Under the pieces are notes generated by a model. That model made no database searches and was not told the origin of the DNA. It saw nothing but the letters and a program-made list of their open reading frames with translations. DNA of 63,999 nt, the filler included, from Craspedostauros australis (lineage: Eukaryota): assembly GCA_030167865.1 (NCBI GenBank). It is 7 parts of 7 records of this genome, joined end to end, with 100 filler letters (N's around TTAATTAATTAA, not from the genome) between each part and the next. Parts side by side here need not be neighbours in the genome. Positions count along the whole stretch, not along the records: positions 18,968 to 32,664 come from JALAGF010003416.1; 6 more parts are not named here. One strand, 5' to 3'. The translations under genes were made by a program, and so were the position numbers. The stretch's first letter is position 1, and each line of letters opens with the position of its first letter. Shown here one piece after another: positions 27,828 through 36,379 of the stretch.

Positions 27828-29714
27828 ATGTCGGAAGAAGCCGCACATGCCGATGCGGCGCCGGAGGAGGACGACCCCAACGACGATTCCGTCGTGCTGC
27901 CGCGCAAGCTGACTGCGGATGAGACGCGCGAGCTCAAGATCGCCTTGCTCCCCTTCTTCCATGCGTCTTCGGACGCAGGGGGAAACAGCACGGAGGATTT
28001 CTCCGACTTTCTGGATTACGCATTCGCCATGGTCTCCAATTCCAAGTCCGTCAACTACATCGTCAAGGAGCTCGTTGGGATGGAGATGGACTTCTGCAAG
28101 GAGCCGCTGGCCAACAAGATCGGGGAGCAGCTCACCAATCTCCTGCAGAACTTGATCGACAAGGACAACGAGGCGGCCGGCGGCGGCGACGTTCATGATG
28201 CCAATGGCGACGGCGATGCTGCACCTGCTGAAAGCGAGGGGGATGACAAGGTATGTTCATTGTGTGCCGTTCCATCGCGCTGTGTTTGTTTGCACCGTCT
28301 TGATCCATGAATGCATGTATATATGCATGTATATATGCATGTATGTGTGTGCTCATGCGGTTGGCCTTTGGCTCTGCAATACTGCTCTGACGGATCCAAC
28401 CACTAACCCATCCATCAACCATCATCCATCAATTGTCACCATGTGCAAACGCTGTTCGCATTCACCAACTTGCCATACCCATGTGCTCACCATCCATTCT
28501 CTCTCATGATGATGCAGTCTGCTGCCGCTTCGAAGAACGCGCTGCTCATGGCAGGTGCATTGGAGGCTCCACGCCAAGGTGGCAAGGGGAACAAACCGAA
28601 GAAGGACGACAAAACCAAGGGCCCCAAGAAGTCCAAAGACAAGGACAAGGACAAAGACGGCAACAGGGATGATGGCAAGGCCGGTCGTGGCGGACGCAAC
28701 CGTGACCGCGATGGCGACAGAAGGTCGGACCGTCGCCAACGTGATGACCGTCAACGCGATGACCGCCAACGTGATGGCAACCGCCGTGGCGATGACCGCA
28801 GAGGTCGCTCACGGCAGTCGGAAGCATTCGATCGTCTCGCCAACGATGATCACGGCAGACGGGACCGACGCCAACCTCGTGGCCGTGATGCGGAACGATG
28901 GGATGACCGGCGAGGTCGTGGTCCACGACGTGCTCGCGGCGAGTCCGGCAACCGCCGATCGCGTGACGATTTCGAACGTGAGCCAGACTACGTCCCAGCA
29001 GGCCGCGGAGGCGGGCGTGGTCCCAAGATGGCCCGACGAGATGACGGGTACCACGAGGGCGGTGGACGAGGCAGAGGCCGTGGCGGAAGAGGCGGCAGAG
29101 GCCGAGGCCGAGGCAGGGGTGGTTACCGACACGGAGGCGACGACTACCACGAGTACAACGATTACTCACAGGGCTACGACGAGTACAACGACTACGACGG
29201 TTACGACGATCCGGGATACGGATACGGTGGTCGTGGTGGTGGAAGAGGCGGCAGAGGCGGCTACGGATACCACGAGGGTGGTGGCGGCAGACGCGGAGGC
29301 CGCGGGGGCAGAGGTCGTGGCAGAGGACGCGGTGGACGAGGCGGCAGAGGCCGTGGCGATCACGCCGAGCATCATCATCAGGGCGAGGGCCAAGATCACC
29401 AAGGCGAGCAGAAGCCTGCCGAAAGCGGTGGCGGCAACAACGCCCAAGGCGGGGACGGATCCGGGGACGCTTCGGCTGCTCATCCATCCCCAATCGTCCA
29501 GGCTGGATACTCCACAGGCTTCTCCGGATACTCTTACCGCGGACGTGGTTACAGAGGCCGTGGTCGCGGTCGTGGCAGAGGCAGGGGATTCCCTGGCCGT
29601 GCCGAAGTCGTCAACATGATGGCTTCCAAAACATGGGTGCGCAAGAAGCCAGAAGAATCTGCCGCAGCAGACGGCGGTGGCGGCGGTGATGCACCACCCG
29701 CCGCCGATGCCTGA
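27828..29714 (+). CDS. RNA-binding protein with N-terminal PWI-like helical domain and RD/RGG-rich tail; exons 27828-28250, 28518-29714
   Basis: N-terminal helical domain (DFLDYAFAMVSNSKSVNYIVKEL), a phase-0 intron GTATGT...TGCAG, and extensive RGG/RG and YDDY repeats. The PWI assignment is inference. Confidence 0.75.
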
Positions 29715-30619
29715 GGTTCAGCTTCAGCTGGACCGACCAAGCGAGCGAGAAAGCTCAATATGAAATGAATCCAACTGGACGAAACAAAATCATGTCAAGT
29801 GTGTTGTTGAAAATGAAGAAGCAAAGAAATGCAAAAACAAACAGAAAAGAAAAGAACAAAGAGATGGAGTGATTCAGCGGCATGGCGTCGAATGATCGTT
29901 TTCGTTGCACGATCATCCCTCCACCGTTCGCAATCACCCACAAGAAACAAAGAAAAATTAAATGAATGGCATTACACACCAAAAAAAGAAAAACCAAAAC
30001 AATACAAAAATGACATGAAATGAAATGAAACCCACACACTTGCCATCCCGACATCCTGCACTTTCCCTCACAGACACACCCAAAGAAATAGGCGGAGGAA
30101 TCCACGGAGGCGCAGACTCCATGCTGGGAGCCAAGATACGAACAGAGCCTCGTGTAGAAGGGCGACGGCACGAATCCGCAGATGAGATGGGCGGTTACAC
30201 GACGTCCGAATATGTATCTCCCGACAGGAAGGAGCAACAAGAAGCGGCATGCACGAGGGGGGCCTGGCCGATTGGCCATTGTTCAAGGCGCGCGAAGGGG
30301 GTCTGAAATGTGTGTGTGTGTGATGCGCTGTTGTTGATGAGATCTGTCGTTGCATGATGTTCCATTATTGCGCATACGATTAACATTCCTGACGACCTGT
30401 GCAAGTGGCTCATGATTCCATCATGTTGAATTCATTCCATTTGTACTAATATATGAATGGGCACGCATCAAGCATTTTGCGTGCCACTCTATGCTCGCAT
30501 GATCTCACACGCCATCCATGAAAGGATGAGCACGTACGTCTAACAATCTTGCAATTTGAATATCCATATTTACCCAGATTCGAAGCACCCGCTCTCCATG
30601 GCTCGTTCCATCGCATGTG

Positions 30620-31995
30620 TCATGCCTGAATATCGGCAAGAACATGCAAGCTGAGCGGCAAGAGGTACGGCACGATCTCATGCACACCCTTGGGGTTGCC
30701 AGGAAGGTTGGCGATGAAGGTGCGGTTGTTGTTCAGGATTCCGCTCGTGCCCCGCGACAAGGCAGCCAAAGGCTGGATCTTTGAGGTTTCGGCAGTGCAG
30801 AAGGACATCAATCCAGCGCACTCGTGACGCAGCATTTCTTTCGTGGCTTCCGGCGTGATATCCCGCAGCGCAAATCCGGTGCCACCAGATGTGAGGATCA
30901 CGTTGACACCGCCGGCATCACCATCCTCGTTGGCCCACTGTTCGATGGCACCTTGAATGGCGGACTTGTCATCTGGAACGATTTTCTTTTGAACGTTGGT
31001 CAGCTGAACATTTGGCGAGTCCTTACGAAGACCCTCGATGCATGATGTGACCGCATCCTCAACGGCCGGGCCCGACAAATCGCCCGTTTCGTACTCGCCC
31101 TTGGATGCACGATCGCTGACTATGAGGATACCGAGTGAGATCTTGATCTCAGTCGCTGGTGGCGCCGGTGGTTGATACGGCGGCAGCTCACGGAATTTCT
31201 TCTTTTGTGGTGGGGCTGATGTTGGCGCTGGCGCTGGAGCGTCCGGAACATCTTGGCAGCAAACGTTGGATTGCAGCGATTTGGTTGTTGCTGGCATTGT
31301 TCCTGCCGGCGCCTTGGATTCGTTGGACGGCTGTTGCTGCTGTTGAGCGTCGCTCTCAGTTGCAGTCAACTTTTTCTCCAGCAATTTCTTGTCATGCTTT
31401 GCCCACAATGGTTTGCTCGCATTGAACCGGTCCATTTGATCGTCAGACGCTTTCTTCGAATGCCTTGCCTTCCAGTCCTTGTAGTGCATGCCGTACACGT
31501 ACTTCGCAGCCTCATCGTATCCCAAGCCATTGAGGAGAGCGATGGTTTTAGCATCATGGTTGCTGCTGCTGCCGCTGGTGATGCCGTCCGTAGTCTTTGC
31601 CTCCGCCGCAATCTTTCGTGCCTCCAAGACCATCCACTGATGGCCAGCGCAACAAGCAGACACAGGGAATGCCCGAAGTTCATCGAAATTGATTGCATCA
31701 TGAGAGTATTTGAGGTGAGAAAGGCTTACTTCGAGCATGCGAAATCATGTGGCCATGCATCCTTCTCCACCTGCACTGTTTCACAGCTGATGAAACCACA
31801 AAGCAAAGACCTCGAGACGCTCACCTTCGCCAAGCAATTGCGGCAGAATCCCGTGAGGGTCATCATGTCGATGTTCTGCACTTCATCGCTGCGTTCCCTC
31901 AGATGCGCGCACACGCTTCGGAATGCTCCGGCTTCCAAACGCTCGATTACATCCCGCGGGATGTGCGTTGTGATGTAGTCGTCGTTGCTGGACAT
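30620..31995 (-). CDS. mogA: DUF1244 - MogA/Cnx1G (molybdopterin adenylyltransferase) fusion; exons 31995-31825, 31636-30620
   Basis: DUF1244: LEAGAFRSVCAHLRERSDEVQNIDMMTLTGFCRNCLAK|WMV...YVYGMHYKDWK. MogA: IVSDRA, DLSGP, VPDD, TSGGTGFALRDITPEA, LSRG, NLPGNPKG. A phase-0 GT-AG intron joins LAK to WMV. Confidence 0.88.
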
Positions 31996-32764
31996 TGTCG
32001 TCGCCGTTTCTTGTCTCTGGTACTTCAGGGGGTGTCGTGTTGGCGTGGATAGAGTAGGTACACGCTTGTATTGTGCGATAGTGGTGGATCTGCTCTTGGG
32101 TGATCCATTGATTGCGTCCCATCACCGCAGACACAACCACCAATCAACAAGCGAAAGCGAAGGATACGGTGGTGATGTTGGCCGTTCTTTTGGCTTCGCC
32201 ATGGTCGATGAATCCAGAACTGTCTTCTGGATCAGTTGAGCCCAAAAATGTCGTCTCCAATTTGATCGAACGGGTCAATCTCATGATTGTCTCATTTCAC
32301 AAAAGATCGCGGAGATTCCTGTTGGACAGAAGGAACTCCCCGTTCCTGTACGATGAATCATGAGGTGCTCCATTCATTCATCATCTAGGTCTGCAACTGT
32401 ATCTACGTCTGTATCTACAACCTCACATCAACACAAGGCGCAGGATCCGATACAAAGAGGCGTTCTGCAAGTGTTGGTTGATAGCAAGGGCCAGAACATC
32501 TGCATGTACAAAGGGCGGTGGTTGCTGCTAGGTCGGCAGCGACCGCCGCGCACGTTCCTGTCATCATAGTAGGGGCCACAAACAATGCCCTTGGGAGTGG
32601 CAGAAGACTGGTGGTACATGGAACAAAGCCAATTGGTATTACTGATGAGTGCTATTGCTGTATANNNNNNNNNNNNNNNNNNNNNNNNNNNNNNNNNNNN
32701 NNNNNNNNTTAATTAATTAANNNNNNNNNNNNNNNNNNNNNNNNNNNNNNNNNNNNNNNNNNNN

Positions 32765-33690
32765 TCTCTCTCTCTCTCTCTCTGCCTTCTTGATTCTCGT
32801 GCATCGCAGATTCAATAATACCTCCACCCTTCCTCCGCGAGCACGAGTACTAGACACTGTTCTCCAACCACGACTTCTCTCCGACCATTCTCCGACCAAG
32901 TCCATGCATCTCATACCAATACCATCCTATTCTCATTCTGCTCCTTTCTTTGTTCTACACGATCGATAATGCCTTGTTCTACAATATTCTAGTATACTTC
33001 AGATTTATTCACCATCCTCTCGGCTCCATTGGCCCACGGTGTCCATCCCGATCTTTCGCAAGTCCTCCAACTCCATGTGCGGCACATACTCACGTTCCTG
33101 CGGCAAGTCCACACGAACGGACTTCATGGCCTCCTCGGCGTCTTTGCCATTCACCGCTTTTTGGTGCGCTGCGTGCACCTGATGTGCCAACTCGGTCACG
33201 TCCTCGATCTTCCGAATGCTGTGTACGTACAGGTGAGATACATCGCGCGACAACCCGATTTGAATGGCTCGTGTCATTGGCATCTTGCGTGGGTCTTGCC
33301 CATCGCCGTGCTGCAGATCGCGTTCCGGATCCCACTGGATGCGACCCATGCTGCCACCGCCGCCATGTCCGCAAACACACCACGATAGCAACTCCGCGAC
33401 GTCTTCGTGGCTCACTTGGATGCGGAGGATGCGTTCTTGGTTGGCTTTCGTGGCGTACCCCGATCGGTACAGGACCCATCCGAAGGATGGTTTGATCCAT
33501 GTCATGCGCGTGGCGTGAAAGTCAGGACAGTCCGTGAAGGTCTGGTTCGCGACAGCGTACTCGGCGATGGAAGGGCGGAAGGCCTGGTAGAAGTACACGC
33601 CGTCGGCATCCCACATGGCGCGGAAGATGCGGGTGGGGCGGTCCTTGTGTTGGGCACTTGGTTTGGCGGTGTTGCTGCTGGGCATGTTTG
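32765..33690. repeat. ~926-bp repeat (DUF4291 CDS + 3' region + CT microsatellite); direct copy at 36650-37575, inverted copy at 37676-~38606
   Basis: The copies appear identical at an offset of 3885 bp, and the ORF track gives identical translations. Confidence 0.95.
33005..33685 (-). CDS. DUF4291 family protein, copy 1 (alternative start 33703)
   Basis: RAMWDADGVYFYQAF, RMTWIKPSF.W.LYRSG.ATK..QERIL, RIQWDPER and RAIQIGL are the DUF4291 signature. Confidence 0.85.
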   Translation of the reverse strand: MPSSNTAKPSAQHKDRPTRIFRAMWDADGVYFYQAFRPSIAEYAVANQTFTDCPDFHATRMTWIKPSFGWVLYRSGYATKANQERILRIQVSHEDVAELLSWCVCGHGGGGSMGRIQWDPERDLQHGDGQDPRKMPMTRAIQIGLSRDVSHLYVHSIRKIEDVTELAHQVHAAHQKAVNGKDAEEAMKSVRVDLPQEREYVPHMELEDLRKIGMDTVGQWSREDGE

Positions 33691-33774
33691 TTGTTCTTGT
33701 CATCTTGTTGGTGTTGATTTTGTTTGTTTTGTTCGATTTTGTGGGGAGATGTTTCTTGTTTTGTGATCTGATTC

Positions 33775-33839: not shown

Positions 33840-34720
33840 GATTGAGTCCACGATCGCAGCCGAGAAAGAAGTCCCAAGGTCGTTCCTCGGCTTCGAGCTG
33901 AAGGACAGTTCCAGACGGTGATGCTGTGTGATCGTATTGTTGGTAAATCAGATAGTTACAATTGAATTGCATGCTGGTTGTTTCATCTCTCTCTCTCTCT
34001 CTTGTTGTTGCCATCTGCTGCTGTTGTGGTGCTGTTGTCGCTGCTTTGTTCCAGCTGTCGCGTCGTCTCGGTTGGTCCTGGTTGCCTGATCTGTCCGTCG
34101 CTGGGGCTCGACAAAACCACAGGTGCTCGGGAAATAGGCCCTTTCGCCAACACAGCCAACGCCGCGGAGAATGTGTGGTGAACATGTCTGTGAGATCTGC
34201 GCAGGGGAGTTCACTTGGAGATCTTCACACGAAACTTTCAGTTCCTGTTGGACCAGCGAAGTCCCACCAACCTCTCCGTTGGCCGCTCAACCCTGGCAGT
34301 TCGGCGCCCACTGGCCGCAATTGGAGGTGACAAAGTCGGTGATTTCGTCAAAGAGGCGCGCGTTTGTGCCAGGGGCAACTGCTTCCCAACCCCCGTTTCT
34401 CTTGTGGCGAGCAGCAAGGAAACAAACAGAGAAGTTTGGCGATGCCTCTGCACACCGATACACCGATACACAGGCAAACAAGGCAAACAAGGCAACAAAC
34501 ACACGAGGCGGCAAACACACAAGCCAGCCACTGTGGAGCAGAGTTGTCGTATGCACGAGTTTTGATACACACGGATAACGACAACTGGATCCATCTCTTC
34601 CTTGCACCCTGCATCCCCTGAATGCTCCTGTTCTCATAATTCGGAAAAACAAAGCAACACAGACACAGACACGCATTCGCACCAATTCGCACCAATTCGC
34701 ACCAACAACCACCAGCAACC

Positions 34721-36379
34721 ATGCCAATCATCAGGAAAGACATCCTCGCTCTCGTCTTGGCTCAGAGCCTCGTCTCCAATGGCGTCGACGCGGTGCTGAA
34801 CACCAACAAGAAGGCAGCCGCAGATGACAAAATTGACGTCAATGTCGACGCCAGTATCAACGCCGCCAAGGCGAAGCTCCTGGAGTTGACAGCCAACCAC
34901 AAGAGGGAAGATGCCAACATGCCATACTCGCAATCGCACTCTCACCTGCACTCTCACTTGCACTCTCACCTGCACTCTCATGATGGAAAGGTCGAGACCA
35001 CAACAAACAAGGTCGCAGACAGCATCCGCCGTCCACGTCCTTCCATCACCACCAACATCAAGGACACGTACGCCGATCTCGGTCGCCTTCAAGCCCAAGA
35101 TGCGTCCAACGATGAGGATGAGCATGCATCGCACGAGCACGGCACTCTGTCTGTTGGAATGGAGACAGACGAGGCTCACGACGCCAACAGTCGTCAGCTC
35201 AAGTCCTCGAAATCCGCCAAATCGGCGAAGTCCTCCAAGTCCTCGAAATCGGCCAAGTCCTCCAAGGCATTCAAATCATGCTTCACTGGAACAGCCGAAG
35301 CTGTCACTGCCAAGTGCGCGGTCGAGGATGCCAGCTGTTGCGAAGCTTCGGTCAACGCCACATCCCCCGCATGCTCTTGGAGCAGTGAGAGCTCTGTAAC
35401 CGTCTGCCCCAACTCCTGCAATGGCGAGCAAGCTTGCTTCTTCAATCCCAACGTCACGACGACCATCCAGATTGCCTCCTACTCTTGCAACAGTGACAGA
35501 GCCTGCCAGTACACCGCCGTGTCTGTGCCCTCCCGTGCTTGCAATGGCGAGGATGCTTGCGGCAAGAATTCTGGCCCGGTCGCCGATGACGCTTGCAATG
35601 GTGATCGTGCATGCCTGGCCAACACGGGGGCTATCGGCAAGGGCTCTTGCTTTGGAGACCGGGCTTGCTTTGAAAACAGTGGCACTGTCGCCGATGACGC
35701 TTGCAACGGCAATGGTGCATGCAGGTACAACGAGGGGAGCATCAGCAAGGGTTCTTGCTTTGGGGGCGATGCTTGCGAGAAGAATTCTGGCCCGGTCGCC
35801 GATGACGCTTGCAACGGTGATATTGCATGCTCGTCCAACGAGGGAGCCATCAGCAAGGGTTCTTGCCTCGGATACTTTGCTTGCTTCCAGAACTATGGCA
35901 ATGTTGCCGATGACGCTTGCAGTGGTGAATATACATGCATGTACAACTACGGAAGTGTCAGCGACGGCTCCTGCGTCGGCACAAGGTCCTGTATGTACAA
36001 TTCTGCCGATGTGGGCGAAGGATCGTGCTTCGGCCTTTATGCGTGCTTCGGAAACGCTGGAAACATCACGTCAAACGCATGCATTGGCCAAAGCTCTTGT
36101 AGCCTGAATCGTGGCATCATCGGTGAAGGCTCCTGTCATCTTGAGAACGCTTGCAACAGAAACTCCAAAGACATCGCCAACTACTCTTGCATTGGAGAAC
36201 AAGCCTGCTACTCCAACGACGGCAAGATCGGAGCGGATTCGTGCCAAATGTACCAAGCGTGCTACCGCAACACCGGCGATGTTGGCAATGGAGCTTGCCT
36301 TGGTGCCATGGCATGCTATTCCAACGTTGATCCGGTGGCTGACGGGGCCTGCATCGGCAATTCTTCCTGTTCCGCGTAA
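34721..36379 (+). CDS. Secreted protein with His-rich segment, RQL site + (KxS/KSx)n lysine cluster, and 18-aa Cys repeats
   Basis: Signal peptide ILALVLAQSLVSNGVDA; (HSHL)n; RQL-KSSKSAKSAKSSKSSKSAKSSKAFKS; about 18 repeats of xxx[AS]CxGxx[AS]CxxNxGx[IV]. Confidence 0.85.
   Translation: MPIIRKDILALVLAQSLVSNGVDAVLNTNKKAAADDKIDVNVDASINAAKAKLLELTANHKREDANMPYSQSHSHLHSHLHSHLHSHDGKVETTTNKVADSIRRPRPSITTNIKDTYADLGRLQAQDASNDEDEHASHEHGTLSVGMETDEAHDANSRQLKSSKSAKSAKSSKSSKSAKSSKAFKSCFTGTAEAVTAKCAVEDASCCEASVNATSPACSWSSESSVTVCPNSCNGEQACFFNPNVTTTIQIASYSCNSDRACQYTAVSVPSRACNGEDACGKNSGPVADDACNGDRACLANTGAIGKGSCFGDRACFENSGTVADDACNGNGACRYNEGSISKGSCFGGDACEKNSGPVADDACNGDIACSSNEGAISKGSCLGYFACFQNYGNVADDACSGEYTCMYNYGSVSDGSCVGTRSCMYNSADVGEGSCFGLYACFGNAGNITSNACIGQSSCSLNRGIIGEGSCHLENACNRNSKDIANYSCIGEQACYSNDGKIGADSCQMYQACYRNTGDVGNGACLGAMACYSNVDPVADGACIGNSSCSA

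Follow-up and report, generated by a model that had tools for sequence, protein, structure and literature searches.

The DUF1244-Cnx1G gene of Craspedostauros australis

The analyzed window, i.e., the whole stretch of 63,999 nt of DNA from the diatom Craspedostauros australis (GCA_030167865.1), hosts at positions 30620–31995 a gene in which a domain of the DUF1244 family (PF06844) is joined to a molybdopterin (MPT) adenylyltransferase domain of molybdenum-cofactor (Moco) synthesis, the G domain of Cnx1 and gephyrin. No function is assigned to DUF1244 in the literature found. The evidence assembled below makes a so far overlooked helper role in Moco synthesis very probable. The locus comprises the following features:

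31825–31995, minus strand: exon 1, 171 nt, 57 amino acids (aa), ending ...GFCRNCLAK; N-terminal half of DUF1244 (EAGAF...VQNIDMM...GFCRNCLAK)
31637–31824, minus strand: phase-0 GT-AG intron, 188 nt, GTGAGC...CATCAG; junction matched by homologues
30620–31636, minus strand: exon 2, 338 aa plus stop; C-terminal half of DUF1244, linker, and G domain
31834–31845, minus strand: CxxC motif CRNC (residues 51–54), also conserved in bacterial DUF1244
31379–31525, minus strand: C-terminal half of DUF1244 (YGM.Y..WK ... KHDK), PF06844 positions 32–66
31250–31270, minus strand: SNVCCQD motif (residues 180–186), within a variable, predicted-disordered linker
30623–31141, minus strand: Cnx1G/MogA-type MPT adenylyltransferase domain with VSD, VPDD, GGTG, RD, LSR, and NLPGNP

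The spliced product has 395 aa. Both exons match PF06844 above the cut-off of 27 bits, exon 1 with profile positions 1–19 (E 1.2e-9, 38.6 bits) and exon 2 with positions 32–66 (E 2.5e-9, 37.6 bits), and residues 170–327 of exon 2 match PF00994 (E 1.7e-16, 60.7 bits vs. a cut-off of 26.6). Neither exon matches MoeA_N or MoeA_C, and the product is thus not a two-domain Cnx1/gephyrin Mo-insertase. An earlier note on this DNA had described a DUF1244-type domain joined across one phase-0 intron to an intact MogA/Cnx1G domain, with a CxxC, a linker CCQD motif, and no E (MoeA) domain in the chain; this architecture is borne out by the exon/intron model and the profile matches.

The predicted splice junction was placed by homology rather than by RNA reads. 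Stop codons in all three frames of the intron 31824–31637 preclude read-through; many other GT-AG pairs would keep the frame open too, and homology singles out this one. A protein search with the window protein returned 3,095 matches, the best 120 of which are considered here. Within this set, 55 homologues are continuous across CRNC[LI]xKW (54 by pattern, plus P0041 with CRNCI), 25 start exactly at the exon junction, and seven carry unrelated or gapped sequence ahead of it, the other 33 lying outside the pattern. The fusion itself is independent of the intron because the second DUF1244 half, the SNVCCQD motif, and the G domain share a single exon and a single frame. Since it furthermore recurs in transcript-derived proteins, an artefact or chimera was ruled out. 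One run with half of the searched words yielded a single contig (30223–31660) that reaches into the intron by 24 nt, shows no splice joint, and may stem from DNA. Between 31070 and 31551 the same run differs from the window at ten positions, six of them residue-changing and none in conserved motifs, as would fit a related strain or allele. The N-terminus is devoid of a hydrophobic stretch (best 11-residue mean 0.89), which suggests a cytosolic protein.

By sequence, the closest solved structures of the G domain are Arabidopsis Cnx1G chains (E 1.4e-24), followed by Thermus MoaB, gephyrin G, and MogA proteins. VPDD, SGGTG, RDIT, and LSR align with Cnx1G and include the equivalents of Asp515 (VPDD), Asp548 (RDIT), and Ser583 (LSR), the numbering being anchored by the 33-residue spacing and by the S583A chain 1UUY; the roles of these catalytic residues are given in the accessible part of PMC9458074. 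The cut-offs of the bacterial MogA equivalog (NF006932; 88.9 vs. 158 bits) and of proteobacterial MoaB (TIGR02667; 52.8 vs. 222.4 bits) were not reached. Consequently, "MogA/Cnx1G" holds in the sense of a Cnx1G-like domain with intact catalytic residues and not in that of a bacterial MogA equivalog. Models of two relatives (P0006 and P0021), compared in place of the window protein itself, match the Cnx1G fold (Foldseek E 6e-16; Z 24.7, root-mean-square deviation (rmsd) 1.8), and in the phylogeny the diatom G domain groups with those of pennate diatoms (SH-aLRT 93). From its sequence, the gene can be assigned as the C. australis MPT adenylyltransferase (Cnx1G) carrying a tethered DUF1244, predicted to form a trimer and to produce MPT-AMP.

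Exon 1 matches the DUF1244 structures PDB 2o35 (E 9.5e-11) and 3fyb (E 5.4e-8), and the DUF1244 fold of the relatives superimposes on 3fyb with an rmsd of 1.3 over 87 residues (Z 7.7). A polar surface, N..LM..GFCRNCL..W and YG..Y..WK, is conserved among 170 bacterial and 230 eukaryotic domains, the 100% value of FCRNC resulting from the way in which the domains were chosen. In centric diatoms, tandem DUF1244 copies are predicted to fold at a pLDDT (model confidence) >90. The linker with the CC motif has a pLDDT <50 in the two AlphaFold2 models of relatives, in which no confident inter-domain packing is seen (predicted template modelling score, pTM, 0.50 and 0.60). A complex prediction of a tandem DUF1244 with a 34-residue SDVCC peptide and zinc, run without alignments, gave no informative score (0.01).

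Distribution and rearrangement of the fusion in eukaryotes

PF06844 and PF00994 are both present in all of the best 120 homologues, the named ones being pennate and centric diatoms, several of them from transcriptomes; 15 contain two CRNC motifs and all 120 carry VCC. In an alignment of 74 sequences the two cysteines (C325-C326) are invariant (74/74) while the linker is otherwise variable. Among 132 further representatives at 50% identity, 93 contain both domains, with a linker CC in 82, one Cys in six, and none in five. The fusion, for which the earlier note had proposed a survey across stramenopile and other algal proteomes, is thus general and recurs in other protists, an architecture already annotated automatically in databases.

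The order of the domains is not fixed. With D for DUF1244 and c for the Cys motif, diatoms have D-c-G; Cymbomonas, Gymnodinium smaydae, Polykrikos, and Incisomonas have E-D-D-c-G; Perkinsus genomes E-D-G; Picozoa c-D-E-G; and two diplonemids D-c-G-D-E and D-c-E. Besides the diatom type, five arrangements hence link DUF1244 to Cnx1, and they occur in dinoflagellates, Perkinsus, Incisomonas, Picozoa, diplonemids, and Cymbomonas. Prey or contaminant sequence may be present in the records from dinoflagellates and single cells; those of Perkinsus and Cymbomonas lie on long genomic contigs. Atlas clusters, few members of which have a record, add Chlorophyta and Haptophyta as commonest taxa. PF06844 is absent from the oomycete, plant, fungal, and animal Cnx1/gephyrin matches of the same search. 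The motif S[DN]VC was found in 197 of 228 proteins with D and G and in 28 of 74 with D and E, compared with 0/55 with E and G devoid of DUF1244 and 0/115 other DUF1244 proteins (redundant, query-biased sets), and therefore belongs to the DUF1244-Cnx1 module.

DUF1244 could be a carrier or scaffold without cysteine chemistry, which either binds MPT, Moco, or molybdate or cross-links G trimers as an obligate dimer in the way the E dimer does in gephyrin, its cysteines holding a structural metal only. The conserved polar surface fits this possibility, as do the listing of DUF1244 among SCOP interlocked oligomers (accessible part of PMC2954204) and the combination of a G trimer with an E dimer (likewise PMC9458074), given that the diatom G is not fused to E. 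Many fusions, however, hold E in the same chain and would need no replacement dimer, and the invariant linker CC would be left unexplained; we consider such a carrier or scaffold quite unlikely.

With respect to origin, the DUF1244 tree requires five label changes, of which starred branches force only one, and a single clade of eukaryotic DUF1244 is not rejected (approximately unbiased test, p-AU 0.64). DUF1244-fused and unfused G domains interleave in the G tree with weak support.

DUF1244 and Moco genes in bacteria

The bacterial counts derive from samples with incomplete assemblies, including the unpublished genomes G229, G291, and G369. Within 151 alphaproteobacterial genomes, DUF1244 was detected in 87 and MoeA in 104, and all 87 DUF1244 genomes contain MoeA. 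N-formylglutamate amidohydrolase (FGase) served as control: 92 of 106 FGase genomes have MoeA, and FGase is present in 14 of the 47 MoeA-less genomes. The streamlined order of G108 (101 genomes, all 1.1–1.5 Mb; presumably SAR11-like) has DUF1244 in 56, MoeA in 59, and MoaC in 58 genomes, and DUF1244 in none that is devoid of MoeA. Presence of DUF1244 and MoeA is concordant in 98 of these 101 genomes, with the two genes mostly at least 65 kb apart.

Gene order points in the same direction. In the order of G108, the distance from DUF1244 to moaC is ≤3 kb in 22, ≤6 kb in 37, and ≤12 kb in 51 of 55 cases, and moaB lies within 1.5 kb of DUF1244 in 10/10 loci. In G218 and G230, moaA-moaC-(moaD)-moaE-DUF1244 converges on moaB, moaD being named from size and position with no family match. 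G041 encodes moeA followed by DUF1244 after a 14-nt gap, and in G302 and G378 DUF1244-moeB is divergent from mobA-mobB. Two neighbors were recorded besides. A transporter of the TauE/SafE family stands beside moaB and DUF1244 in 10/10 loci of the G108 order (L117–L135); in these streamlined alphaproteobacteria it may transport molybdate or a sulfur compound. A 159-aa open reading frame overlapping the end of DUF1244 in G041 (L116:3784–4263) has no NCBIfam match; judging by its motif, it resembles a truncated globin.

The position of DUF1244 just ahead of moeB (G302, G378) and just after moaE (G218, G230) would also suit a protein that serves MPT synthase (MoeB/MoaD/MoaE) by carrying sulfur as persulfide or by reducing thiols, and that is tied to Cnx1 only because Cnx1 anchors the biosynthetic complex. 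Relays for sulfur or electrons look similar, with a CxxC and a mobile Cys arm. Moreover, plant Cnx1 interacts with Cnx5 as well as Cnx6/7, and from which donor Cnx5 obtains its sulfur is described as unknown (PMC11434336, PMC9370521). Still, all eukaryotic fusions found are to G or E, the best 120 of 1,249 long DUF1244 proteins comprise no ThiF, MoaD, or MoaE fusion, and the tie to a particular type of G protein points to the G step, making the sulfur assignment rather unlikely.

This tie was recognized in Gammaproteobacteria (131 genomes), where 32 of 34 DUF1244 genomes contain MoaC and the remaining two have MoeA- and Mog-length genes. Among the 84 MoaC-bearing genomes, DUF1244 occurs in 31 of the 53 that have MoaB and in one of the 31 that lack it; for MogA, the figures are one of the 22 genomes that have it and 31 of the 62 that do not. 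A follow-up of 40 chosen alphaproteobacterial genomes covered all 17 from the class sample and the three from the G108 order sample with MoeA and no DUF1244, as well as the first 20 with DUF1244 of up to 3.5 Mb. MoaB-type G was matched in 18 of the 20 DUF1244 genomes (no match in two), whereas 10 of the 17 genomes with MoeA and no DUF1244 possess a G of a different type only. In bacteria, DUF1244 thus favors MoaB-type over MogA genomes. "MoaB requires DUF1244" is ruled out as a rule, as MoaB-type G was found without DUF1244 in 21 gamma- and 10 alphaproteobacterial genomes examined. E. coli MoaB has been reported inactive, and MoaB-only bacteria were named an open question (PMC3896444). Caulobacter vibrioides, one of the control genomes, combines DUF1244 with MoaB and has no MogA match above the cut-off. 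In MoeA-bearing alphaproteobacteria devoid of DUF1244, the G-type gene often sits in a frame of 300–375 aa, maybe a MoaC-MoaB fusion.

Several observations weigh against a role in Moco synthesis. The majority of DUF1244 genes in proteobacteria have no Moco gene next to them. Out of 563 confirmed GTDB loci, the 80 whose domain is most similar to that of the diatom encode stand-alone proteins of ~105 aa without CC, and no G or E gene lies within 5 kb of them (0/80, with a positive control made); neighbors are FGase, acyl-CoA ligase, pyruvate kinase, EamA, and GapR. With flanks of 1.5 kb, a Moco gene stands beside DUF1244 in 0/30 alpha- and 2/30 gammaproteobacterial loci; among alphaproteobacterial loci from small genomes the count is 0/11. 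FGase fusions, counted by eye, make up 69 of the best 120 of the 1,249 long DUF1244 proteins, Cnx1 fusions five. DUF1244 is missing in 17 of the 104 MoeA-bearing alphaproteobacterial genomes, in 52 of the 84 MoaC-bearing gammaproteobacterial ones (21 of these with MoaB and no MogA), and in 10 of 11 control genomes with MoeA, and the co-occurrence p-values ignore phylogeny. Concerning the cysteines, bacterial DUF1244 has no CC arm, the second Cys of the motif is missing in several protists, and the motif is undocked in both AlphaFold2 models. With many Moco genomes devoid of it, DUF1244 is not obligatory for the pathway. As separate observations, bacterial loci gave two unverified radical-SAM matches and one coxL-like match, and the FGase-DUF1244 fusions (P0131, P0145, and others, the named ones alphaproteobacterial) form a second Rosetta-stone partner which a Moco role leaves unexplained.

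FGase being the commonest bacterial neighbor and fusion partner, and occurring in 82 of the 87 DUF1244 alphaproteobacterial genomes, DUF1244 might be unrelated to Moco and, for example, assist FGase in handling formate or one-carbon units. The eukaryotic protein would then be one old passenger fusion, in line with the single origin that the tree does not reject, and the bacterial pattern would stem from lifestyle and phylogeny. Among the 106 FGase genomes, however, DUF1244 is present in 82 of the 92 that carry MoeA and in none of the 14 that lack it; the concordance with MoeA is seen at equal genome size between genes that are mostly distant; there are three distinct Moco gene neighborhoods; and DUF1244 was kept through domain shuffling. 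An unrelated passenger is accordingly highly improbable. The Rosetta-stone link to Moco synthesis put forward in the earlier note is upheld along three lines, namely repeated fusion, bacterial gene order, and co-occurrence, and we hold with considerable confidence that DUF1244 works in this pathway.

Moco genes of the diatom, proposed role of DUF1244, and known systems

A PF00994 search of the C. australis genome returned five places, three of which are copies of this gene; the other two are an E gene of the MoeA type and an FAD synthase. The three copies of the locus (contigs C1007, C3416, which is the window's own, and C3667; window 29156–32629) are 100% identical over 3,474 nt, representing assembly redundancy or a very recent duplication. 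No other intact G-type gene was thus found in the genome. The E domain, which the earlier note had proposed to locate, is encoded by a separate gene on contig C4837. At its end, where plant Cnx1 has G, this gene carries a 177-residue extension (L001:2371–2901) without family match; a decayed G domain is unsupported (no Pfam match, hhalign probability 0.5%, Atlas matches below the reliability mark). The genome also contains a 906-aa frame with a Mo-oxidoreductase domain, judged from its length to be nitrate reductase, which, if true, would depend on the diatom gene as the only intact G-type gene found. The assumption that eukaryotic G is normally fused to E, making a lone G odd, did not hold up: the accessible part of PMC4620153 tabulates CNX1G and CNX1E as separate in most algae, that of PMC11733289 gives Bacillariophyta MoeA without fused MogA, and a lone G is also ordinary in algae in that of PMC13262936.

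At 32665–32764 and similar places, a 12-base TTAA spacer flanked on either side by a run of 44 N connects one part of the window to the next, and neighbors across the joins need not be adjacent. Beyond this contig join lie a DUF4291 gene (33008–33700, minus strand, E 3e-45) and a cysteine-rich DUF7640 repeat protein in four stretches (34640–36379, plus strand).

In respect to mechanism, DUF1244 may act between MPT release and molybdenum insertion, because it is fused only to G or E in eukaryotes, lies adjacent to moaB, moaE, moeA, or moeB in bacteria, and depends on which type of G is present. The variable order of the domains, their long flexible linkers, and the lack of confident packing suggest a handler of something small, such as a small molecule or a metal; the conserved CxxC, the His, and the mobile Cys(Cys) arm would suit thiol redox chemistry or a soft metal. 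In the proposed scheme, DUF1244 acts as a dimer, in line with its SCOP listing as an interlocked oligomer and with the confidently folded tandem copies. Its CxxC would bind a soft metal (Cu(I) or Zn) or provide a pair of reducible thiols, by which the MPT dithiolene would be capped, uncapped, or kept reduced during the time that MPT or MPT-AMP is on G and is handed over to E. The eukaryotic S[DN]VC(C) would be a swinging cysteine arm shuttling metal or electrons between CxxC and the G active site. Thereby, DUF1244 would improve the step and not be indispensable everywhere. Copper on MPT bound to Cnx1G is read as protective. It is named in the titles of PDB 1uux/1uuy. That DUF1244 handles metal or thiols at the dithiolene is suggested by conservation, and we regard this as evenly balanced. 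A more specific proposal remains tentative and on the doubtful side, namely that DUF1244 is the missing, dedicated factor loading or removing a dithiolene metal cap and supports the MoaB route of proteobacteria, the streamlined marine alphaproteobacteria among them. Eukaryotes would have acquired it early from a proteobacterial donor and joined it, along with a swinging Cys arm, to Cnx1; animals, fungi, land plants, and oomycetes would have lost it. Relevance for nitrate reductase, as raised in the earlier note, stands for diatoms. Perkinsus, diplonemids, Picozoa, and Incisomonas are heterotrophs that have the fusion as well, and it is therefore not the general reason for it.

A link of DUF1244 (also searched as COG3492, SMc04008, PF06844, 2o35, and 3fyb) to Moco was not found in the accessible literature, subscription papers lying outside the search. 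Term searches for "DUF" gave no hit in the available main text of the recent Mo-insertase architecture surveys PMC11733289, PMC13262936, and PMC11489736, nor in eight of nine supplementary files of the first and 12 of 21 of the second. A figure of PMC11733289 draws unnamed grey domains, and the extra domain may be pictured there. Moco synthesis counts as a solved pathway, based on work in E. coli, plants, fungi, and animals, and in none of these did DUF1244 turn up here. If true, our proposal would add a pathway component in diatoms, other marine protists, and over half of the sampled alphaproteobacterial genomes, and would provide a function for a domain with two solved structures. MPT adenylation in bacteria with MoaB and no MogA, the case left open in PMC3896444, as well as the handling of the dithiolene metal cap would become directly testable.

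Compared with known systems, the fusion represents a known enzyme in a variant form and hints at an as yet unrecognized accessory factor, for which the mechanism is a proposal. The catalytic Asp and Ser positions are shared with Arabidopsis Cnx1 G (PDB 1UUX/1UUY/1O8N), gephyrin G, and E. coli MogA; unlike these, the diatom protein has an N-terminal DUF1244 and a Cys arm and no E in the chain. Its G is not of the type of proteobacterial MoaB, the G-type partner of DUF1244 in bacteria. With bacterial DUF1244 (PF06844, SMc04008-like; PDB 2O35, 3FYB) it shares CRNC, YG..Y..WK, and the fold, whereas the bacterial proteins are mostly stand-alone, 80–110 aa long, and devoid of a CC arm, and the diatom domain has an insertion of ~20 residues between its two halves. 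Split CNX1G and CNX1E genes are common to C. australis, Chlamydomonas, and other algae; for the latter, the extra domain is not mentioned in the available part of PMC4620153. The archaeal MoeA-PBP fusion, read as an aid to metal supply in the accessible part of PMC11733289, is alike in attaching an accessory domain to a Mo-insertase domain. The archaeal PBP is an oxyanion-binding fold on E, whereas DUF1244 is a helical, presumably dimeric CxxC domain whose ties are mainly to G.
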